Shown: positions 3,823 through 17,455, counted from the first letter of the stretch. The stretch: DNA of 20,388 nt from an archaeon (GCA_038736665.1 JAVYMF010000006.1:1-20388), one strand, 5' to 3'. Translations and numbers: made by a program. The notes: generated by a model from the letters alone, not told the origin.

Positions 3823-5022
3823 ATGAAAATAGGCATAGTGGGCAAGCCGTCCTGTGGAAAATCAACTTTTTTTAAGGCCGCGACGCTCGTTGACGTCGCG
3901 ATAGCCGCGTATCCTTTCACGACCATAAGCCCGAACTTCGGCGTGAGCTACGTGCGCGTGAAATGCGTCGAGAGCGAGTTCAACGTGCGCTGCAACCCGC
4001 GGCAGGGCTACTGCGAGAAAGGCGTCCGTTACGTGCCTGTCGAGCTCGTCGACGTCGCCGGCTTAGTCCCTGGAGCCCACGAAGGAAAAGGCCTAGGCAA
4101 CCAGTTTTTGAACGACTTGAACATGGCAGACGTGCTAATTCACGTTGTGGACGCAAGCGGCTCGGCAAACGAGCGCGGTGAAATAGGCGCACCGGGCTCG
4201 TACGACCCAGCGAATGACGTAAGATTCTTGGAAAACGAGCTAGATATGTGGTACTTCAGCGTGCTGAAGAAAGGCTGGGAAAAGTTCGCCAAAAAAGCCG
4301 CGAATATGAAGACAAGCGTTCAAGAGCAATTAGCCCAACAGATGTCCGCTTTCAACGTCAAATCTTTTATGGTTGAGGAAGCGATGAAAATACTCGCGTT
4401 ACCTGAAAATCCAGCGCATTGGACAGATGAACAGCTGAAAGAGCTCGCGATTAACTTGCGCCGCGTCACGAAACCTATACTCATCGCGTGCAACAAAATT
4501 GACCTGCCGAAAGCCGGAGAGAACTACGAGCGCCTGAAAAAAGAATTCCCTGAGTATTATTTCACGCCCTGCTCGGCGGCGTCAGAATTAGCGCTGCGCG
4601 AAGCCGCGAAACGAGGCGTGATTAAATACAACTCAGGGGACAGCGACTTTGAAATAATAAACAAAAACGCAATGACTCCTGAGCAGTCTAAAGGACTGGA
4701 ATTCATCCGCGAGAGCATACTGAAAAAGTACGGGTCCACAGGCGTTCAAGCAACGCTGGACGCGGCGGTTTTCGACTTCTTGAAGTACATCGCCGTGTTC
4801 CCCGGCGGCGTGAACAAGCTCGCGGACAGCCAGGGAAGGGTCTTGCCTGACGTGTTCCTGATGCCGCCTGGCACGACAGCGTATGATTTCGCCGCAAGGA
4901 TTCACACTGATTTCGCGAAGAACTTCCTGTACGCCGTAGATGTGCGCTCCAAGATGAAAATAAAGCGAGAGCACGCCCTGAAAAACCGAGACGTGATTGA
5001 AATAATTTCAGCGGCCAAGTGA
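3823..5022 (+). CDS. Obg-family GTPase/ATPase of the YchF/OLA1 type, with a C-terminal TGS domain.
   Basis: The P-loop is [17 protein letters not shown] and the G3 motif is DVAGLV. The C-terminal [17 protein letters not shown] matches the YchF TGS region (E. coli KIHTDFEKGFIRA). ATG at 3823 has a TATA box (TTTATAAA, 3784..3791) about 32 nt upstream. Confidence 0.8.
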
Positions 5023-6192: not shown

Positions 6193-6924
6193 TCACACGA
6201 CGTCCTTTTCCTTCACGAGCTCTTGAATGGAGCCCTCTTCTTCTTTCCTCTTGCGGTCGAGGAACTCCAGGCCTATTTTTTCGAGCTGCTTCTGGCCTGC
6301 CATGTAAATGCGCAACCCTGTGTTAAGCGACGCGAAAGACACGACTGCGAGCACGGCACACGCGAGCACGTAAATGAAAAAATAAATATCCATCGGGTAC
6401 CTGTTAACTATCGAGTCCACTATGTAAGCCCCGAAGTAAACCACCGCAAGCGCTGAGAACAGCCCAACTATCATCAGGCCTAACGACATCATTTTTTGCG
6501 TGGCCCCGCTTATCCTCAGCAGGTCTATTTTGTCCTGCATCTTGCGCAGTTCCGTTTCTTCTTTGAGCTTCAGGCTGACGAGCTCGCTTTTCAGCAAGTC
6601 CAGCTCGCGCTTTTCCTCGGCGACGCGCTTGTCTGTGTAGTCCTTCTGCTCCATGAGCTTAAGGTCCTGCTGGAGCGCGAACTCTTTCTTGATTTCCTCT
6701 AATTTTTCTTCCGCCTTTTCGCGGATTTTCTTGTCTACTATCGAGTCAAGCTTTTCAGCCAGCGACTGCTCGAATTCTGTCTTGGCTTTCTTGAGAACGC
6801 CCTTTGCTGCCGATTCGCTCAAACCGCTCTGTTGGAGAGTTATGAGTATGTTCTGCTCTGACACGTTCTGGGCGAGCATTTCGATTACGATGTCGGTAAG
6901 TTTGCGCACGTCAACAGAAGCCAT
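6193..6924 (-). CDS. Membrane protein with an N-terminal helical domain, a long coiled coil, two C-terminal TM helices and a short charged tail.
   Basis: The ORF is 243 aa, running MASVDVRKLTDIVIEMLAQ... through a coiled coil to ...MMSLGLMIVGLFSALAVVYFGAYIV...IYFFIYVLACAVLAVVSFASL. It has an ATG start and is co-directional and adjacent with the coiled-coil gene downstream. Confidence 0.6.
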   Translation of the reverse strand: MASVDVRKLTDIVIEMLAQNVSEQNILITLQQSGLSESAAKGVLKKAKTEFEQSLAEKLDSIVDKKIREKAEEKLEEIKKEFALQQDLKLMEQKDYTDKRVAEEKRELDLLKSELVSLKLKEETELRKMQDKIDLLRISGATQKMMSLGLMIVGLFSALAVVYFGAYIVDSIVNRYPMDIYFFIYVLACAVLAVVSFASLNTGLRIYMAGQKQLEKIGLEFLDRKRKEEEGSIQELVKEKDVV

Positions 6925-7914: not shown

Positions 7915-7985
7915 GCAAAAAACGCGAAGTTTAATGTTGTCGTCTTGTAATAAGACGCTGGAGAAGACGATATTTACTTTTTTTT
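7915..7985. terminator. Convergent-gene terminator zone with a short hairpin plus oligo-T tracts on both strands.
   Basis: Hairpin CGTCTT-gtaat-AAGACG spans 7941..7957. T9 on the plus strand (7977..7985) would serve the SpoIIM-like gene, and T6 on the minus strand (A6 at 7919..7924) would serve the SPFH gene. Confidence 0.3.
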
Positions 7986-9011
7986 CTTGCCGAGTTTCGC
8001 GCTTAGCGCTGCTTTGATTAGGGCTTTTTCGTCTTCGGTCAGTTCGAGCTTTTCTATGCCATATTCTTCTTTTAGCTCGTCTATTATGCTTTTTTTCTTC
8101 TCGCCTGCAGCTGCTTTTTCCTTGTATTTTTCAGCGATTTCCTGCTGGGCTTTAGCGTAGTCTGTGCCGAATTTTTCCGAAACGCTTGCTGCGAGGCGCG
8201 AGAGCTCCATTGGGAAGATTATTTTGGACGACTTGCCTTCTGCGATTTTCTGAAGCGACTGCAGGTACATGTACTGCAGGGTCGGCTGCGAGAATTTGCT
8301 TGCGGCTTCTTGGACGGCGTCCAGCTTTATTTTCATGCCTTCTGCTGTTTCTTTCGCTGCGAGCTTTTTCTGTTGGGCTTCTTTGAGGGCGTGCATTGCT
8401 TTCTGCAGACCTTCGGGGAGGGTTACGGACTGTATTTCGACGTTTTCTATTTCAACGCCCCAATCCTCGGTGACTTTTTTGGTGCTTTCCTTGAGCATGG
8501 CGTTTATTTTCGAGATGCTGGATATGACGTCTGAAGCTTCCATTTGACCTACTACTGAGCGCAGCGCCGCTTGAACGTCCAGAACAGCGGATTTTTGGTA
8601 GTTTTCGACGTTCAGAACAGCTTTTTTGGGGTCCTGGACTTTCAGGAAAAGAATGGCATCTATCTTCAGCTTTACGTTATCTTTGGTCACCACTTCTTGC
8701 GCGGGAATGTCGACTGACTTGGTCCTGAGGTCGACGAGGACGTGGGATTCTATGAACGGTATTAAGAAAGTCCACCCGGGCCCTGCTACGCGCTCGAACT
8801 TGCCACGGTGAAAAATCACGGCTCTCTCGTATTCGTTGAGCCTTACGAAATAATTAGGTGCGCTGATGTAAACGAGCGCAAGGATTGCTATTATGAAAAC
8901 TATCGTCGCGAAAGAGTACCAGAGGTTGAATACTGTGAGCAACGCCGCTCCGAACACCAGCGCGAAGACGAGGGTGATGAACAGCGCTGACTGCTTCTGC
9001 TCTTCTTTCAT
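7974..9011 (-). CDS. SPFH/band-7 (stomatin/prohibitin-like) membrane protein with an N-terminal TM hairpin and a long K/E/A-rich C-terminal tail.
   Basis: The core is ...RAVIFHRGKFERVAGPGWTFLIPFIESHVLVDLRTKSVDIPAQEVVTKDNVKLKIDAILFLKVQDP...VENYQKSA..., followed by coiled-coil-like sequence. The probable start is ATG at 9011 (MKEEQKQ...), with TATA (TTTTATAC) about 25 nt upstream. The track ORF extends to 9044. Confidence 0.8.
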   Translation of the reverse strand: MKEEQKQSALFITLVFALVFGAALLTVFNLWYSFATIVFIIAILALVYISAPNYFVRLNEYERAVIFHRGKFERVAGPGWTFLIPFIESHVLVDLRTKSVDIPAQEVVTKDNVKLKIDAILFLKVQDPKKAVLNVENYQKSAVLDVQAALRSVVGQMEASDVISSISKINAMLKESTKKVTEDWGVEIENVEIQSVTLPEGLQKAMHALKEAQQKKLAAKETAEGMKIKLDAVQEAASKFSQPTLQYMYLQSLQKIAEGKSSKIIFPMELSRLAASVSEKFGTDYAKAQQEIAEKYKEKAAAGEKKKSIIDELKEEYGIEKLELTEDEKALIKAALSAKLGKKKK

Positions 9012-9032
9012 GCGTCTTTTAAGGCTCGGAAG

Positions 9033-9060
9033 GTATAAAAACATAACATATATTTAATAT
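9033..9060. promoter_or_regulatory. Bidirectional promoter region with two TATA boxes (SPFH gene leftward, DUF373-like gene rightward).
   Basis: GGTATAAAAAC (9033..9042) is about 25 nt upstream of the minus-strand ATG at 9011. TATTTAATAT (9051..9060) is about 28 nt upstream of the plus-strand ATG at 9083. Confidence 0.5.
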
Positions 9061-9082: not shown

Positions 9083-10297
9083 ATGTCAAAAGTCCTAGTG
9101 CTTTGCGTGGACCGCGATGACGATGTCGGAAAAAAGACCCGGTTCAAAGGCCCGATTGTCGGCGAGAAGAACAACATCGAAGTAGCCACGGCTCTTATCG
9201 CAGCTGATCCTGGGGAAAGCGATGGCAACACGATGTTCGAGGCCGTGCGCGTTTTCCGCGAGCTTAAGAAGGACGCGGTGGATGTCGTGACGCTGACGGG
9301 TCATCCTTCGCGCGGGTACGCTGCTGACAAGACTCTGGCGGCGCAGCTGGACAGTGTTCTGAAGAAATACGGCAAGATCGACGGGGTTTATCTGGTTACT
9401 GATGGGGCTGACGACGACGAGATAATCCCTATAATTCACTCGCGAGCGAAAGTCATCTCCAAGAAAACGCTGATAATAAAGCAGGCGAAAGAGCTGGAAA
9501 AATCGTATTACGTGATAAAGCAGCTGCTGCAGGAGCCGGCTTTCGCCAGGATAGTGTTCGGTTTGCCGGGCGTAATACTTTTGACTCTTTCTTTTTTCCA
9601 AGAGCTCGGCCTGAAGATAATCATTTTCCTCATCGGAACTTACTTGATGCTGAAAGGATTCGGCGTTGAGGAACCAGTGATAAACTCGTTCCGCTCTTTC
9701 CGGGAAACGACGAGCATTGAGCGCGCGTCTTTCCCCTTGTACATCGGCGCGTTCCTAATGGGCATATTTTCTGTCTGGGCTGGCTTCGAAAAACTCTCGA
9801 CTGCCCAGGCCTCGTTCCTGATGCAGGCCACGTCATTCATTTCTGGGTTCGCGACGCTGTTCATCATAGCTGTGGCGCTGTTTTTGTTCGGCAGAATCGG
9901 AGACATGGCTTACCAGAAAGAGACTTACAAGATAAAGCGCTACTTGATGAGCCTCGTCTCGATAATAGCGATTTGGACCGTGCTCTTGAAAGCGGTTGAC
10001 TTCATATTCGGGAAGATATTTCTAGACGAACTGATATTGTGGGTGCTGCTGGCGTTCTTCGCTTCCATCGTGGGCTTGAACGTTGTGAAGCGCCTGTTCA
10101 TAGACAGGTTCGTGGTAAAGCACTTGAGGAAAGACATGGACGCTTACGACGAAAACGGCGACAGGCTAGGCAAAATCACTGAAGTGAACCGCAATAAGCG
10201 CTTCATCACCGTTGAAAAAAAGGATGAGAAGACAAAAATTTCCTTCAACAAGATAGCGCTTGTAACGAGCGAGTACGCGTCAATAAGAACGCGCTAG
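9083..10297 (+). CDS. Archaeal integral membrane protein with an N-terminal cytoplasmic domain, possibly DUF373/COG2237-type (from memory, unverified).
   Basis: The N-terminus [19 protein letters not shown]...[10 protein letters not shown]...[13 protein letters not shown] forms a soluble domain of about 150 aa and is followed by 6 or more TM helices. The ATG is preceded by GAGGCGGGTG (SD-like) and two TATA boxes at 9033..9060. Confidence 0.55.
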
Positions 10298-12186
10298 GCG
10301 ATCGTTTTTCGTACTTCTGCAATCAGCTGTTTCTTCGCTGCGCACTCTTTCAGCGCGATTTTCAGGACGTCGACCAAATCGCTGGCAGTCACTATCCTGA
10401 TTTTTTTAGCTTTCTTCGCGTCAAGCACGACGTCGTCCTTGTTTCCGTGCGGTATAATGACTGTTTTCGCGCCTGCCTCGATGGCAGCTTCTATTTTCGC
10501 TGAAACGCCGCCCACGGGCAGCACTTCACCTTTGACGCTTATGGAACCGGTCATAGCGACGCTCTGGTCGACTGGAACGTTTTCCAGCGCGGATATCACG
10601 GCTGTAGCGACGCTTATTGAAGCTGAGTCGCCTTCAACGCCCTCGTACGTCTGCAAGAATTGAATGTGCACGTCGTAATTCTTTATGTCCTTGCCTTTGT
10701 ATTTTTTAACTATCGCGAAAACGTTCTGCACGGCCTCCTGCGCGATTTCGCCGAGTTTTCCCGTGGCTATTGTCTTGCCGACATTAACGCTCTGCGCGGG
10801 CGCGACGCTCGCCTCAATAGGTAAGAGTATTCCGCCGAAGCCCACGTTCCCGCCGAGCACGGCGAGGCCGTTCACTTTACCGACAGCCAATCCGCGCGTT
10901 CGGAACACTTCATACTCTTTCTTCACGTCAATCGTCTTGTCGGCTATCTGCTGCTCGAGAGTGCGCGCCAGCGTCTTAGCCGCCAGGACATGCTCTCTTG
11001 TGACGATGCGCGCGTTCTTGGTACGCGCGATGTCGCCCGCCGCTCGGACTAGCCCGCCGAGGTCGCGCAGCTTCAGCGTCAGCCTGTTCTTTCTTCCAGC
11101 GCGCCTGCGGGCTTCGAAAATTACTTCTTCGACGGCTTCAGCGTCGAAATGAGGTATTTTCCCGTCTTTCTTCACTTCTTGCGCGACGAACATGACTATT
11201 TTCTCGCGGTTTGCTTTGGTGTCAGGCATGTCCTCGTTCAAGTAAATCTCGTACCCGTAGCCGCGGATGCGCGACCGCAATGCAGGGTGCATTTTCTGCA
11301 GATCAGACATGTTTCCCGAAGCTATGAGCAAGAAGTCGCACGGCACAGCGTCAGTGCGCACCATCGCGCCTGACGACATCTCGCTCTGGCCAGTGATAGG
11401 GTATTTTTTTTCCTGCATTGCCGTAAGAAGCTCTTGCTGCGCTTTCGGAGACAATGTCGCGACCTCGTCGATGAACAGCACGCCGCGGTTTGCTTTGTGA
11501 ATCATGCCTGGCTCGACGCGCAGGTGAGGGGGCGTCCCGAGGCCGCCGCTCTGGTACGGGTCGTGGCGCACGTCGCCCAGCAGCGCCCCTGCCCGCGCGC
11601 CTGTGGCGTCCACGAAAGGCGCTGAGTTCTTGCCGAAGTTGTCGATGAGCAGCTTAGGCGCGTTTTCCTTTTCCCTGCCAGGCATTCTCAGTCCTTTCAT
11701 TCCTGAAGCGAAAGCGCTCGCGAAGACAAGGATGGCCATGAAAAGGCCGCCGACGATGATGAAAGCAGCGAGTATTATGTCCGTGAAAAGGCGGAAATAC
11801 ATTGAAACTGCTATTGAAAGCATAAACAGCAGCCCTATTAAGAGCACGGGGCCGAAGCCTGGTGTCATTTCTTCCATTGACTGCTGGACGCTTTTCATTT
11901 TCGAGTCAGCGACCATCTTGCGGCCGGAACCTGCGGGAACTACGACGACTTTCGGGTTGTTCTCGTCGCTCGGGTTCGGGTAAATCAAAACATCTTCAAG
12001 CCGCTCCACGGGAAGCATTTCGGCCATGGCCTGCGCGAGCATACTTTTTCCCGTGCCAGGCTCGCCGATGAGAAGGACGTTCCTCTTCTGAGCGGCGGCT
12101 TTCTTGATTAGCTCAACGGCCTTTTCTTGTCCTATCACTTGGCCTACAAGCTTTTCAGACACCTGTATTTCAGAAGTCGATTTCAT
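10294..12186 (-). CDS. lon: Archaeal membrane-bound ATP-dependent Lon protease (LonB).
   Basis: Walker A is [16 protein letters not shown] two-helix TM insertion follows Walker A, as in LonB, and Walker B is VLFIDEV. The C-terminal protease domain has the catalytic Ser in [17 protein letters not shown] and Lys in [10 protein letters not shown]. The ORF is 630 aa with an ATG start. Confidence 0.92.
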
Positions 12187-12224
12187 TGCTTTTCCACTCT
12201 CGTTTGAATACGCAGTATTATTAT

Positions 12225-13487
12225 TTAAACTATTTTCCCACGGTATACCCAGGACGGGCCGTAGTAATTCTCGTGGCTCTGGAAATCGTCGGCCAAGCGC
12301 AAGCTTTTCAGAACGTCAAAAAAGTTGCCTGTAATCGAACACTTCGACACAGGCTTAGTTAATTCGCCGTTATTCAGGAACGCGGCGTTCGAAATTTCCA
12401 TGGAAAAGTCCCCAGTGAGCTCGTTCGCGTTATGCACTCCGATGACGTCGTAAACAAAAACGCCTTCCAAATCGCGGAACGGAATATACTCCCTCGCCTT
12501 GGCTTCTATGTTCGAAAAGCCAGGGTGCGGCAATGAAGAGAAAGCGCGTATTGCGTTGCCTGACGGCTTTTTTTTCGCCAAGGCCGCGGCTTTCAAGTCA
12601 TAAAAGTAATTCCTTAAAACGCCGTTCTCTATTATGGGCTTGCGTTCTGCGGGCACGCCCTCGTCGTCGCACGCAAAAGACATTATACCGCCTGCTCGCA
12701 GGGGGTTGTCATACAAGGAAAAAGAATCGCTGGCCACTTTCTTGCCTAATTTCCCTGAGAAATAAGACTGCTTTCTGAAAGCTTCCTCGCCGTTCACTGC
12801 TACTTCTAAAATTTCCAAAATCAGGCTTAGCGCGACAGAAGGGTGAAGCACTATGTCGTACTCGCCCGACACCCGTCTGCCTCCTTGGAATTTTTCGGCG
12901 TACTCGCCGGCCTTCTGCGAAACCTCTTGGAGGCAGAAGTGTTCTCGCGCGCTGAAAGAAAAAGAGGAAACGCATTCCTTGAACTGCGCGGATGACGTCG
13001 CGCTCAACTGATTTTCTCTGCACTCGAAGTCAACGCCGTTTGAGTTGATGATGCGCGAGCGCTCTTCGGAGTAGGACACAAAGTTCTGGTTCGAGTGAGA
13101 GCGGCCTTTGATTTCAGTCATGCCGATGACTTCGTCGGCGATTTCTTCTTTCTTGGACGCCAACTTTTTTGAGTAAAGGCCTTTCACGTGCTGATAGCCT
13201 GAGCTTTCCGGAAAATTAAACTTAACCCCTGAAAACTTCGCAGAGCTCAGCGCGCTCTTTAACGCAGCGCCGAACATTTTCTCGTCTGTAAAGTAAGAGA
13301 ATCCCACGCCTCCTTTTTTTAAGACGCGGATAGCATAGCCTGACGTCGAAGACGAGTCGAAGCTTTCAACGCGGTCCAAAACAGTCTTGAACAGGAGGCT
13401 GTTTGAAGATGAAAAAAATAGCTCGGCTTCATCGCAATGCTTCTCGGCTTCTCTCAAAAAATAAGTTAAGTCAGGCAACGCGCACAC
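12225..13487 (-). CDS. PmbA/TldE-family (peptidase U62, non-catalytic partner of TldD) protein.
   Basis: Global TldD/PmbA-family similarity: ...[16 protein letters not shown]...GGGR..GEYDIVL... pattern, with no HExxxH. The start is a non-ATG codon. The track start at 13487 is GTG sitting inside AAGAGGTG. TTG at 13478, with that GGTG as SD 6 nt upstream, is equally likely. The gene overlaps the tldD 3' end. Confidence 0.8.
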
Positions 13488-14820
13488 CTCTTATTCTCAT
13501 ATGCGGCGCCGAGCCGCTTACAGGGACTCCTTGCCCTCCCTTGCCGCAAGTGCCTGGGTCGTTGAACGCCATGTCTTTGCCGACGGCGTCTACTTTTTTC
13601 AGAGTAGTGAGAATATCGCCGATAATCACGATGTCGCGGACGCGCTCCTTTAACTCTCCGTTTTCAATAATATAACCGCCTTCTGACGCGAACTGATACG
13701 TTCCCGCGGACGTCATAACCTGCCCTCCTTTCACGCCTTCCACGTACAAACCGCGGCGCACGTCAATGATGTCATCGAAAGAAAAATCGCCTGTTTCGAC
13801 TACTGTGTTGCTCATCCTCACTAAAGGAAAGCGCGATACTCCTTGCGAGCGAGCATTTCCGGTGGAGTGCGTTTTCATTTTTCCAGCTGTCTCGCGAGAG
13901 TGCAAATAAGAGCATAAAACTCCTTTGTCGATGATTCGCGTAGGGCGCGCCTTCACGCCCTCGTCATCATAATAGTAAGAGCCGGCGAACCTTTCGAGCG
14001 TCGGGTCGTCAATTATGCTCACGTGCTGCGAGCCGATGCGTTCGCCTATTCTGCCGCGCAAGATGGACTCGCCCATCAGGACGTAATCCGCTTCGCACGC
14101 GTGGCCGACGGCCTCGTGCGCCAGCGTGCCGCTCATTTTAGGGCCGAGCACTACGTCGTAAACCCCCGGCTTGACTCGCTTCGCCCGAAGGAGGGAAACG
14201 CAGCGCTTTGCAACGTCTTCTGTTTTTTCCATCGCGTCGTCAGCCAGCTCTAACCCGTAAAGCCCGGAAAATCCTTCGGAGGATTTAATCACAAGGCCGT
14301 TTTTTCCGGCGAAGACTGAGTGGAATATTCCGCTCGAGTCGGACTCGAAATCCACGCGTGAGCCTTCCGAGGAAGCGTAAAAATGCCTGAAATGCGCGTC
14401 TCTGTAAGTCGTGTCGAATCCGACGACGCTTTTCATTTTCAGGAGTCTGTTCAGTTCCAGGGTTTTCTTGACTTTCTCGTCAAGAGAAAAGTCGCTGACT
14501 GGCTTCTTGGATTTGAGTTTAATGCTGTCGACGCTTGTTTTCTCTTGGCTCATTGTAGTCTTCAGGCTTTTTTTCCCTGCTGCCCTGCATAAACGCATCG
14601 CAACGCTTAAAGTTTCTTTTAATTTTTTCTCATCATTAGTTGACGCGAAACCAAAAGCTCCTTTTTTAAGAACGCGCACTGAAAAAGCCGAGCGCGAGCT
14701 GTTTACTGCGCTGTCTGGCTTTCCGCTGCGCACGGAAACGAACGCTGAGTCAACTGAAACTCCTCGTATTTCTACGAGGTCGGCGTCGGCATCTAGAAAA
14801 CGCTCGATTGCATCTATCAT
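13471..14820 (-). CDS. tldD: TldD metalloprotease (peptidase U62, catalytic subunit).
   Basis: The HExxxH zinc motif is in AHEAVGHACEADYVL. A TldD-type N-terminal region (MIDAIERFLD...YVEIRG) and the GGxxxS...G C-terminal patterns are present. ATG at 14820 overlaps the upstream gene's stop (ATGA) and has the SD-like AAGGAAG 7 nt upstream. Confidence 0.88.
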   Translation of the reverse strand: MIDAIERFLDADADLVEIRGVSVDSAFVSVRSGKPDSAVNSSRSAFSVRVLKKGAFGFASTNDEKKLKETLSVAMRLCRAAGKKSLKTTMSQEKTSVDSIKLKSKKPVSDFSLDEKVKKTLELNRLLKMKSVVGFDTTYRDAHFRHFYASSEGSRVDFESDSSGIFHSVFAGKNGLVIKSSEGFSGLYGLELADDAMEKTEDVAKRCVSLLRAKRVKPGVYDVVLGPKMSGTLAHEAVGHACEADYVLMGESILRGRIGERIGSQHVSIIDDPTLERFAGSYYYDDEGVKARPTRIIDKGVLCSYLHSRETAGKMKTHSTGNARSQGVSRFPLVRMSNTVVETGDFSFDDIIDVRRGLYVEGVKGGQVMTSAGTYQFASEGGYIIENGELKERVRDIVIIGDILTTLKKVDAVGKDMAFNDPGTCGKGGQGVPVSGSAPHMRIRGVRVA

Positions 14821-16121
14821 ACTAATCTTCCTTTGTCTATGACCAAGCGGCCGTCAACAAAAACTTTTCCGTTGCAGTTGCGCAGGTCCTTGATGAAGTC
14901 CAGATGTGACGCTGCGTTTGTTTTTCCTCCGTAGCCGCGGTTCCATCCTATTGCGATGTGAACTGAACCGAAAATCTTCTCGTCTATGATTATTTCCCCA
15001 CGCGTGAATTCTGCTTTCTTGTTCAGACCGATTCCGAATTCTGCTATGCGGTTCGAGTCCTTGCCGTTCTTTTTTATGAATTCGCCGAGCATTCCTGCAC
15101 CTTTTTCAGCGGTGCTTTTCATGACAAGGCCATCCTTGAAAGTCAGCGTCAGGCGCTCTGCAACCCCCTCTCCTGGGATGACTGAAACTGGTATGACAAG
15201 AGTTCCGTTCGCCGACGTCTCCACGGGAGCGAAGAAGATTTCGCCTGTGGGAATGTTTTTTCCGACGTCGCCGTGCTTTACTCCCTCCTCGTCGTATTCC
15301 GCGGTGTCCTTGTTCAAGCGTCTGCCTTTCAAGGAAAACGACAAATCAGTGCCGTCGTCGGCGGTGATGCGTATGATGTCCGCGCCTTTGAACGCTTTAG
15401 TGTAAGCGTCGACAAGCCGCTGGATGTCACTTGAGTAAGAGTATTCGATGCAGTCAAACATTATTTTTTTAAGTTTCCTGTAAGGGAACTTCCTTTCTCT
15501 CGTGGCGCGCTTGTGTGGCCAGCCGACAAGCACCCACGGCGTGTGCTTCTCGTCGCTTATCTCATGCAACTTCATTGTGACGGGGCGACGCACGCGTATT
15601 TTTGAAGGAGGTATTCCTCGGCTCCAGCCGCTCCAGTCGCGCGACTCAAGGTGAATCGCTGCGTCTATGTTTTCCTCGATCAACCGCGATACGGCTGGCA
15701 GCTCGCGCAACGCGTCTTCAGAGCGGTACTGGACGAATTTCCTGGTGCGCTCCATATCTGTTTCATTCATTATCACAAAAGCGTCTTTCTTCCAAAGCTC
15801 GTCCCTCACTGCGTACGCTAGCGTTCTGTTGTCCGGATGATATGTGACTTGGACCGTCATTGATATTTTGTCTTTGACGCGGTAGCGCTTGCCTTTCTTT
15901 ATAAGCAGCGGGCCGTAAGTGACATCTTCGTACTTCGCCAGGAACTTCTCGGCGTTTTTTTCGTTCATACAGAGGTTCTGCGCTGCGTAATGCAACGAGA
16001 ACGCTCCGCGCATCCACGGGTATTTCTTGCTGATTTTAAGAAAATAGGGGTTGTCTTTTTTCCCGACGCGCATGCTTTTATTCACGATATTATAAGCGAG
16101 CTTTTGAACGTCCATAGCCAT
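14817..16121 (-). CDS. Aminopeptidase of the M29 family (aminopeptidase T/S, 'thermophilic metalloprotease').
   Basis: M29 hallmark blocks are present: NIPTGEIFFAP, AEFGIGLN, FGSVHIAIG and ASHLDFI. ATG at 16121 has TATA (AATTAAATAC, 16142..16153) 27 nt upstream, so it is probably the first gene of the protease operon. Confidence 0.85.
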   Translation of the reverse strand: MAMDVQKLAYNIVNKSMRVGKKDNPYFLKISKKYPWMRGAFSLHYAAQNLCMNEKNAEKFLAKYEDVTYGPLLIKKGKRYRVKDKISMTVQVTYHPDNRTLAYAVRDELWKKDAFVIMNETDMERTRKFVQYRSEDALRELPAVSRLIEENIDAAIHLESRDWSGWSRGIPPSKIRVRRPVTMKLHEISDEKHTPWVLVGWPHKRATRERKFPYRKLKKIMFDCIEYSYSSDIQRLVDAYTKAFKGADIIRITADDGTDLSFSLKGRRLNKDTAEYDEEGVKHGDVGKNIPTGEIFFAPVETSANGTLVIPVSVIPGEGVAERLTLTFKDGLVMKSTAEKGAGMLGEFIKKNGKDSNRIAEFGIGLNKKAEFTRGEIIIDEKIFGSVHIAIGWNRGYGGKTNAASHLDFIKDLRNCNGKVFVDGRLVIDKGRLV

Positions 16122-16141
16122 CTTTCATAAAACGCTGTGAT

Positions 16142-16153
16142 TGTATTTAATTG
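16142..16153 (-). promoter_or_regulatory. Promoter TATA box of the aminopeptidase-tldD-pmbA-lon operon.
   Basis: Minus-strand AATTAAATACAA is centred 27 nt upstream of the aminopeptidase ATG (16121). The spacing matches the other first genes in this window. Confidence 0.5.
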
Positions 16154-16160
16154 TTCCCGG

Positions 16161-16169
16161 AAAAAAAAA
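16161..16169 (-). terminator. Oligo-T (T9 on the minus strand) archaeal-type terminator downstream of the RHH gene.
   Basis: A plus-strand A9 run (ggAAAAAAAAAgcc) lies about 90 nt after the RHH stop and just upstream of the protease-operon TATA. Archaeal RNA polymerase terminates at oligo-dT tracts. Confidence 0.4.
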
Positions 16170-16256
16170 GCCGTGCGCGCGTTGAACAGACTTTTCCGCG
16201 TGCGTTGTCGAATGTATGCCGCGCGCCGGACCGAAACACAGACCTATTTTTCAGCG

Positions 16257-16472
16257 TTATGTTGCTTTTTTCCCGAGCTCAACCGTGCGCAGTTCGAACT
16301 TCGGCCGCTCGACGTGCTTGATGCCGTGCTCGTCTACGAGCCGGCGCGCCGCGTCGCGCAAAGCGTCTGAAATGTTAGAATAATACCCTTCGTCAACAAG
16401 GTGGCGGAGCTGGTGCTCAAGGCGGCGCGGTACACGAGTGTGTATCACAGTTGAGATATTATCGTCATTCAT
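16257..16472 (-). CDS. Ribbon-helix-helix (CopG/Arc/MetJ-type) DNA-binding protein.
   Basis: MNDDNISTVIHTRVPRRLEHQLRHLVDEGYYSNISDALRDAARRLVDE fits the RHH beta-strand, helix A and helix B pattern (compare [34 protein letters not shown]). ATG is at 16472, and the track start at 16496 is an over-extension. An oligo-T9 run (plus-strand A9 at 16161..16169) lies downstream on its strand. Confidence 0.7.
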   Translation of the reverse strand: MNDDNISTVIHTRVPRRLEHQLRHLVDEGYYSNISDALRDAARRLVDEHGIKHVERPKFELRTVELGKKAT

Positions 16473-16494
16473 ATGTAACACAAAAGTATACAAC

Positions 16495-16504
16495 ATTTAT
16501 AAAG
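16495..16504. promoter_or_regulatory. TATA box in the divergent RHH / RNase Z intergenic region.
   Basis: ATTTATAAAG lies about 25 nt upstream of the RHH ATG (16472, minus) and about 55 nt upstream of the rnz ATG (16559, plus). Confidence 0.4.
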
Positions 16505-16558
16505 CTGTCGGTGCGCTGCTTGGGAGGTTTAAAAAAGCCGCGGTTCTTAATACAGCGC

Positions 16559-17455
16559 ATGATTGAAGTAACGTTCCTGGGGACCGCTGCGTCGCTGCCT
16601 ACAAGAGAACGAAATTTGTTCAGTGTGCACGTTAAGCACTTGAATAACCGCATGCTTTTCGACTGCGGCGAAGGCACGCAGCGCCAGATGTTCAGCGCGG
16701 GAATTTCGCCTTTCAAGATAAGCAATGTGTTCATCACGCACTTGCATGCAGACCATTTTCTCGGGCTGGCAGGGCTGATTCAGACGCTTAATTTCCTGCA
16801 GAGGGAAGAGCCGCTGCACGTTTACGGGCCGACGAAAATAAAGAAATATGTCGACTTCTTCAGCAATTGGGACTACTTTGCGCCTTCTTATGAGATAATC
16901 TCTAAGGAAGTGAAGGAAGGCCTCGTGTTCGAAAACGCTGATTACAGCGTCGCGGCGTTCGAGCAGAAGCATTCTTGCCCTTGCTTCGGGTACGTGTTCG
17001 AAGAAAAAACCGAGCTGAACGTTGATAAGGCAAAGTTCAAGAAATTCGGATTGAAAGAAGGGCCCCTTATCAGAGAGATAAAAGAAAAAGGAAAAGTGCA
17101 TGTCGGCGGCCGAGTCGTCCGTTTGGAGGACATAGCTAAGCCGATAAGGCCCGGCAAGAAGATAGTAATTTCCGTCGACACCGTGCCTAACCCTAACATC
17201 GTGAAGTTCGCGAAGAACGCTGACGTCCTGATCAGCGAAGCCACGCACATGGACGACCTTAAAGAGCGAAGCCATGAGTACGGGCACATGACGGCCAAGG
17301 ACGCTGCGCGGTTAGCTAAGGAAGCAGACGTCGGGCGTCTCTTATTATCGCATTTCAGCGCGCGCTACGAGGACGTGAAAGCGCTTGAAAAAGAGGCTAG
17401 GGAAATCTTTAAAAACACGACAGCAGCGACTGATCTGATGACCATCCAAGTTTAG
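16559..17455 (+). CDS. rnz: Ribonuclease Z (tRNA 3' endonuclease, metallo-beta-lactamase fold).
   Basis: MIEVTFLGTAASLPTRERNLFSVHV...MLFDCGEGTQRQMF...ITHLHADHFLGL (HxHxDH motif)...HMTAKDAARLA. The length is about 298 aa, typical of short-form RNase Z. ATG is at 16559, and the track ORF from 16451 is over-extended. Confidence 0.9.
   Translation: MIEVTFLGTAASLPTRERNLFSVHVKHLNNRMLFDCGEGTQRQMFSAGISPFKISNVFITHLHADHFLGLAGLIQTLNFLQREEPLHVYGPTKIKKYVDFFSNWDYFAPSYEIISKEVKEGLVFENADYSVAAFEQKHSCPCFGYVFEEKTELNVDKAKFKKFGLKEGPLIREIKEKGKVHVGGRVVRLEDIAKPIRPGKKIVISVDTVPNPNIVKFAKNADVLISEATHMDDLKERSHEYGHMTAKDAARLAKEADVGRLLLSHFSARYEDVKALEKEAREIFKNTTAATDLMTIQV

Follow-up and report, generated by a model that had tools for sequence, protein, structure and literature searches.

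An M29 aminopeptidase–TldD/PmbA operon core beside lonB in a probable Micrarchaeota genome

Archaeal post-proteasome cascades include Tricorn with F1–F3 in Thermoplasma and the TET (M42 and M18) aminopeptidases. Closer to the genes considered here is TldD/E, a metalloprotease whose shell takes only unfolded peptides and works on them as a 'pencil sharpener'; the Escherichia coli enzyme processes microcin B17, and the location of tld genes near lon has already been recorded (Ghilarov et al. 2017, PMC5810440). Here we analyzed 20,388 nucleotides (nt) of archaeal DNA (GCA_038736665.1, JAVYMF010000006.1:1-20388; 'the window' denotes this whole stretch), in which genes for an M29-fold aminopeptidase, TldD, its partner PmbA (TldE) and the protease LonB follow one another on the minus strand. 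Our preferred reading, held with moderate confidence, is that they form a neighbourhood of housekeeping genes for proteolysis in a DPANN genome, probably of Candidatus Micrarchaeota, in which proteins would be recycled from LonB through TldD/PmbA to M29.

A preliminary description of this DNA had named the same four genes, and its identities, coordinates and junctions agree exactly with our open reading frame (ORF) list, the junction sequences and the family profiles; both the identities and the linkage are direct observations, and the catalytic motifs are intact throughout. The M29-fold aminopeptidase (14817..16121, 434 amino acids (aa)) heads the operon and is probably translated from a leaderless mRNA. 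It is followed by TldD, the catalytic subunit of the TldD/E metalloprotease (13471..14820, 449 aa, three PmbA_TldD Pfam domains), by the non-catalytic partner PmbA/TldE (12225..13487, 420 aa, GTG start, first and third PmbA_TldD domains) and, after a 38-nt gap (12187..12224), by LonB, a membrane-anchored AAA+ Ser-Lys protease (10294..12186, 630 aa, with matches to TIGR00764 and to the Lon_C and LonB_AAA-LID Pfam families). The TldD ATG lies within a 4-nt ATGA overlap with the M29 stop codon, and PmbA overlaps TldD by 17 nt from its GTG start, or by 8 nt if it starts at a TTG at 13478, an equally good candidate with GAGGTG 6 nt upstream. This qualifies the Shine–Dalgarno motifs proposed earlier, since the 'GGTG' before PmbA takes in the GTG start codon itself. 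Taken together, the cluster looks like a set of ordinary protein-recycling genes and not like a new type of system.

The arrangement was compared with that at 25 loci in relatives: L001, which comes from the species-representative genomes and was found with a single M29 protein, 15 from metagenomes (L002–L016), anchored on M29 and found with an M29 alignment, and nine from exact-protein look-up (including L082–L086, L091 and L092). Tblastn was used to place the window's proteins on them, and 20 loci, the window included, span the region from M29 to LonB. Among named relatives of TldD the nearest, which reach 80% identity, carry the label Candidatus Micrarchaeota, on which the probable assignment of the host rests. 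Across the spanning loci M29 is 39–66% identical to that of the window, and in all 20 the distance from M29 or TldD downstream to LonB is no more than ~6.5 kb. Read in the direction of M29, the lineage shares a block in which RNase Z (opposite strand) and, in some loci, a small ribbon-helix-helix (RHH) gene (same strand) precede M29, while LonB is followed by DUF373 (opposite strand), SPFH (same strand) and SpoIIM (opposite strand).

What lies between M29 and LonB varies. In the window TldD–PmbA stands there alone, and L091 has the same genes as far as PmbA, after which its contig ends. TldD–PmbA is followed by ~450 nt in L001 and L082 (the latter also with an M24 gene ahead of M29), and is preceded by M24 and followed by ~300 nt in L002 and L003; L009 has two diverged TldD–PmbA pairs. 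In L016, L083 and L085 other genes come after the pair, together with a UPF0020 methyltransferase on the opposite strand, and L016 also has a small PF18894 metallopeptidase; L084 and L086 share this arrangement except that M29 is missing. Seven loci (L005, L007, L010, L011, L013, L014 and L015) hold an M24 Xaa-Pro peptidase alone, its start overlapping the M29 stop codon; L006 holds the methyltransferase alone, and L092 an opposite-strand M18 aminopeptidase gene. The slot is thus plastic, with zero, one or two TldD/PmbA pairs, and across the relatives it takes in four further kinds of peptidase: M24 (PF00557, 206 bits), M18, PF18894 and the second TldD/PmbA pair. The M29/TldD overlap is kept in L001, L009, L083 and L091, and the TldD/PmbA overlap in L001, L082–L086, L088 and L091. 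LonB directly follows PmbA with a spacer below 100 nt only in the window (38 nt) and L009 (60 nt); it usually lies more than 200 nt away or beyond opposite-strand genes, the spacers in relatives ranging from 60 to ~460 nt. From this comparison of gene order, M29–TldD–PmbA with its overlapping junctions appears to be a conserved operon core, LonB a conserved neighbour that is normally a separate unit, and the slot between M29 and LonB a place that preferentially holds peptidases.

Beyond this DPANN group, the genes occur together in the reverse order, LonB–TldD–PmbA, in a Hydrothermarchaeales metagenome-assembled genome (MAG; 11-nt LonB/TldD overlap) and in Methanolobus zinderi (CP058215; 34-nt gap). 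Of the linkage that the preliminary description did not recognize as a standard archaeal arrangement, the lon–tld part is therefore known in outline from the published record (PMC5810440). The window shares with these neighbourhoods a TldD and partner placed tightly beside Lon on the same strand; it differs in that TldD–PmbA precedes LonB and M29 heads the operon, and in that its relatives often have LonB separated and further exopeptidases inserted. Literature searches found no paper on an M29–TldD operon or on this archaeal arrangement, and none combining TldD, LonB and archaea.

The M29 protein matches Pfam PF02073 (Peptidase_M29) at 93.5 bits, where the cut-off is 27, and has no match among the NCBIfam models. 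Its AlphaFold model (mean predicted local distance difference test 93.3) has as its best Foldseek matches only PepS, AmpS, AmpT and NicX (4ICR, 1ZJC and 2AYI among them, E ~1e-19). The five metal ligands of AmpS correspond to E294, E361, H388, H406 and D408, which are invariant across 35 homologues, whereas the dioxygenase NicX lacks the first Glu ligand at the aligned position. The modelled protein has the M29 fold with all five ligands, and aminopeptidase activity is predicted for it, the fold being one that NicX has in common. Compared with AmpS, AmpT and PepS (Protein Data Bank (PDB) 1ZJC, 2AYI and 4ICQ), the likeness lies in the fold (template modelling score ~0.6, E ~1e-19) and in the complete set of dinuclear metal ligands; sequence identity is only 18–19%, and NicX is about equally close in sequence. 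Residues 1–68 fall outside the Pfam match and are predicted with high confidence as helices and short strands. This N-terminal part of ~68 aa is common to the DPANN homologues and missing from those of Hadarchaeota, which cover 76–83% of the query. Among distant M29 homologues (L017–L081; Hadarchaeota, Aenigmarchaeota and others) none has TldD or LonB as a neighbour, and eight, from other archaeal lineages, adjoin an M24 peptidase (L017, L018, L032, L036, L057, L073, L078 and L079). A second, shorter M29 paralogue follows M29 in L031, L057, L073 and L078. M29–M24 looks like a wider exopeptidase module.

TldD matches PF01523, PF19290 and PF19289, all above the cut-off (231.6 bits for the third domain), carries the zinc motif HEAVGH at residue 235 and has a GTCGKGGQ segment whose Cys aligns with that of E. 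coli TldD (PDB 5NJ5). Against the NCBIfam archaeal equivalog NF040952 it scores 292 bits, below the cut-off of 635; it is a member of the TldD family and not an equivalog of the NF040952 seed group. PmbA, which adjoins and overlaps the 3' end of TldD, matches PF01523 and PF19289 and has no HExxxH motif, as expected for the partner subunit. By analogy with the E. coli structure 5NJ5, the two would form a closed heterodimeric shell. The pair resembles E. coli TldD/TldE and Sulfolobus Sso0660/Sso0661 in the HExxxH motif and Cys ligand of TldD, the motif-less partner and the adjacency of the genes; it differs from the E. coli pair in the low identity of TldD (E 5.5e-41 over residues 141–446) and in that the microcin and CcdA context is absent from the window. 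Between the tandem TldD–PmbA pairs of L009 (11289–16607) identity is only 51% and 44%, which points to an old duplication; HExxxH is present in both TldD copies, and the sequences suggest two TldD/E complexes that may differ in specificity.

LonB scores 876 bits against TIGR00764 over residues 2–626 (cut-off 516.6), and its Lon_C domain scores 104 bits. It has Walker A and B motifs (GEPGTGKS at 41 and VLFIDE at 236), a hydrophobic membrane insert within the ATPase domain at ~106–165, and GDSA at 519; the Lys of the catalytic dyad was assigned by eye to GGVSAK at about residue 564. The full-length score together with the AAA+ motifs, the insert and the Ser identify the protein as archaeal LonB. 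The LonB genes of L007 (10627–13803), L002, L003, L011 and L013 carry in-frame inserts of ~1.1–1.5 kb, of which L011 has more than one, and the junctions in L007 (HDPFQ|C...HN|SGGLGTP) look like those of inteins; the window's LonB has no such insert. LonB and the gene for a DUF373 membrane protein are convergent, their stop codons overlapping by 4 nt in the window (10294–10297) and in L001 and abutting likewise in the remaining relatives. Any terminator of LonB would have to lie within the DUF373 coding region. DUF373 is followed by an SPFH/Band 7 gene, a hint that the neighbourhood may serve membrane quality control.

A TATA-like box, TTAAATAC, lies at 16143..16150 on the minus strand, 29 to 22 nt before the M29 ATG. 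Its distance equals that of the TATA-like boxes before RHH, RNase Z, orf6193 and orf5008 in the window, which makes a leaderless M29 transcript plausible, and equivalent boxes occur in L091 and L082; the leaderless promoter proposed earlier is upheld. A second TATA-like sequence, TTTAAATAATAATA (12229..12216), overlaps the PmbA stop codon in the spacer before LonB and, in comparison with the other promoters of the window, could be an internal LonB promoter. Of the single four-gene transcript envisaged in the preliminary description, the coupling of M29, TldD and PmbA is kept in relatives, while the extension through LonB is not established given this element. Rfam and tRNA scans of the window returned nothing, and a scan for bacterial sigma-70 promoters and terminators was uninformative, the host being an archaeon. 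Two further start sites were reassigned. RNase Z most likely starts at 16559 (the longest ORF overcalls 16451–16558), since family models align from residue 37–39, and SPFH (7974–9044) probably starts downstream of 9044, as a TATA-like box stands merely 8–18 nt ahead of that ATG. In L001, the ~460-nt gap between PmbA and LonB (13870–14307) is of low complexity, one strand reading as an ORF rich in Cys, Phe and Leu and the complementary strand as one rich in Lys and Thr; these have no Pfam match and the gap is therefore probably not a gene.

Upstream of M29, the small RHH-like gene (16257..16472, minus strand, 71 aa) is transcribed as a unit of its own and diverges from RNase Z. Homologues in relatives favour the start at 16472 over a longer ORF from 16496. 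Its family scores all fall below the cut-off (RHH_8, 21.5 versus 25.4; CdrS NF058555, 26.5 versus 100; ParD, 20.7 versus 46.2), the ParD-type antitoxin model TIGR02606 being matched weakly (E 3e-4), and the pattern VVHTRVP...GYYSN.SDALRDA.RRL of its homologues in L001, L082, L091 and L092 is RHH-like. Among the relatives, the gene is kept in a closer sub-clade, namely these four loci and the window. A palindrome, GTATAC (16486..16491), lies downstream of the RHH TATA box (16503..16495) and ahead of the start codon of RHH, and is a candidate autoregulatory operator. GTATAC occurs at the 5' region of RHH in all five loci that have the gene (three copies at 6461–6507 in L001, two at 4214–4261 in L082, at position 1610 in L091 and at position 2 in L092) and only twice in the window. 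The second copy there (12243, at the 3' end of PmbA, 57 nt before the LonB ATG) was considered as an RHH site and set aside as chance, because in the RHH-bearing relatives the sequences upstream of LonB and M29 lack GTATAC. As the sites cluster at the gene's own promoter and not at the M29 or LonB promoters of relatives, autoregulation is better supported than control of the operon: on these sequences RHH is probably autoregulated, and its control may extend to the divergent RNase Z promoter, which lies in the same promoter region. In L092, two perfect palindromes upstream of M29 (~330–400), CAATTAAC-aaa-GTTAATTG and CGATTAATC-ata-GATTAATCG, are unlike the GTATAC sites and are possible operators for a different regulator.

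Between the RHH stop codon and the M29 promoter lies a hairpin (16161..16232, minus strand) with a closing stem of 10–13 bp followed by nine T residues (16169..16161), probably the RHH terminator and possibly a small RNA. A hairpin with oligo-T follows RHH in four loci (the window, L091 at ~1887–1950, L092 at ~234–296 and L082 at ~4524–4587); the stem sequence differs at each locus yet stays complementary, and an inner motif, ACAACGC...GTCTGTT, is common to the window, L091 and L092. Fold z-scores for single sequences are weak (-0.6 to -2.6), and the hairpin has no match in Rfam. The conservation supports the suggestion that RHH has its own terminator.

In the preferred reading, the TATA box at 16150..16143 would drive a leaderless mRNA for M29, TldD and PmbA, translation of the three being coupled through their overlapping stop and start codons, and LonB would be expressed by readthrough from this mRNA or from the TATA-like element over the PmbA stop. 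Membrane-anchored LonB would unfold proteins and cut them to oligopeptides, the closed TldD/PmbA shell would admit unfolded peptides only and trim them to short fragments, and M29 would free amino acids, with M24 Xaa-Pro and M18 aminopeptidases contributing in relatives; a host with little biosynthetic capacity would rely on such recycling. The logic is that of the Tricorn and TET cascades, from an ATP-dependent unfoldase-protease through an oligopeptidase and aminopeptidases to amino acids, and the M18 gene of L092 belongs to a TET-type family. The enzymes of the proposed cascade differ (LonB, TldD/E and M29), and its genes are clustered here. We infer this order of action, the role in amino-acid salvage and the functional coupling; coupling is argued for because the linkage is kept under reversed order in distant phyla and because unrelated peptidase families have repeatedly been recruited to the same slot. 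The degradation line sketched in the preliminary description gains from the same evidence: the kept M29...LonB neighbourhood, the presence of M24, M18 and PF18894 in the slot, and the separate Methanolobus and Hydrothermarchaeales clusters.

Several observations weigh against this reading. Nine of the 20 spanning loci lack TldD/PmbA, and in 7 opposite-strand genes part LonB from the cluster, so LonB would normally have its own promoter. Four TldD contexts were sampled outside this DPANN group, and LonB was not seen near TldD in the Thermoplasmata MAG or in Methanocaldococcus villosus. The whole block of ten genes on two strands (orf18153, U32C-like, RNase Z, ..., DUF373, SPFH and SpoIIM) is syntenic in the lineage, so that the adjacency could partly be inherited gene order. 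Given these counts and the rarity of a short LonB spacer, the four-gene operon proposed earlier does not hold as a fixed conserved unit; it is the M29...LonB neighbourhood that is conserved. The main alternative explanation, to which we give distinctly less credence than to recycling, is inherited synteny without functional coupling: an M29–TldD–PmbA operon and an independent LonB that came to abut in this sub-lineage through the loss of genes such as the UPF0020 methyltransferase. The genes of the conserved block are unrelated, the methyltransferase, divergent from LonB, separates it from PmbA in L016 and L083–L086 and from M29 in L006, LonB spacers are at least 200 nt in most relatives, and even the window's 38-nt spacer has the TATA-like TTTAAATAATAATA. 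Simple inheritance of gene order sits less easily with a variable slot that repeatedly gains different peptidase families (M24, M18, PF18894 and a second TldD/PmbA pair), or with a lon–tld linkage that recurs in another order in distant phyla and is also recorded in the literature (PMC5810440).

Two further explanations give the neighbourhood a specialized role. The preliminary description had cast RHH as a repressor of the operon; it might repress the protease genes, or resemble an antitoxin and, as a substrate of LonB and TldD/E, control them through its turnover. In the window, L091, L092 and L082, RHH is indeed the next gene upstream and on the same strand, it has weak similarity to ParD-type antitoxins and CdrS, and AATACAAT in the M29 TATA region is one mismatch from TATACAAT beside the palindromes of the RHH promoter. 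However, matches like AATACAAT and TATACAAT occur at chance level, and a search for repeats around the RHH–M29 spacer found no convincing operator at the M29 promoter. RHH is absent from L002–L016 and L083–L086, where RNase Z abuts the first operon gene (M29, or TldD in L084 and L086), and in L001 it lies 3.3 kb from M29, beyond two opposite-strand genes. In L001 and L082 the GTATAC clusters are confined to the RHH promoter and missing from those of M29 and LonB; no toxin partner is present, and the conserved hairpin with oligo-T insulates RHH from M29; we consider such control improbable. More doubtful still, and rejected here as very unlikely, is the other alternative raised earlier, a module for the maturation of, or immunity to, a peptide made on ribosomes and modified after translation, with TldD/E as leader peptidase. 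The processing of microcin B17 by E. coli TldD/E (PMC5810440) is a precedent for it, but neither the 20-kb window nor its relatives contain a cyclodehydratase, a YcaO enzyme or a dedicated exporter, the sole transporter being a major facilitator superfamily protein in L016 and L085 and not in the window. As to a precursor, the spacer's single small ORF (16239..16147, 30 aa) is not conserved and stops at codon 3 in L091; a precursor gene with modification enzymes was found in neither the window nor its relatives, and the neighbours are housekeeping genes. PADLOC assigned the locus to no defence system, returning generic AAA and Lon domain matches only.

The components of this neighbourhood are all known and annotated and the lon–tld linkage is published, so the gain is incremental. 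Its wider bearing concerns TldD/E, which is near-universal in archaea, has no agreed cellular role and has had its physiological role called elusive. An M29–TldD operon beside LonB, with interchangeable exopeptidases, offers the testable hypothesis that TldD/E serves general peptide trimming in protein turnover. More tentatively, TldD/E may be a general oligopeptidase downstream of LonB in archaea, and Micrarchaeota may possess a modular 'peptidase island' that exchanges M29, M24, M18 and TldD/E beside lonB, possibly with hand-over of peptides at the membrane, and would thereby supply a DPANN cell of poor biosynthetic capacity with amino acids. In this way the locus bears on amino-acid supply in reduced-genome DPANN archaea.

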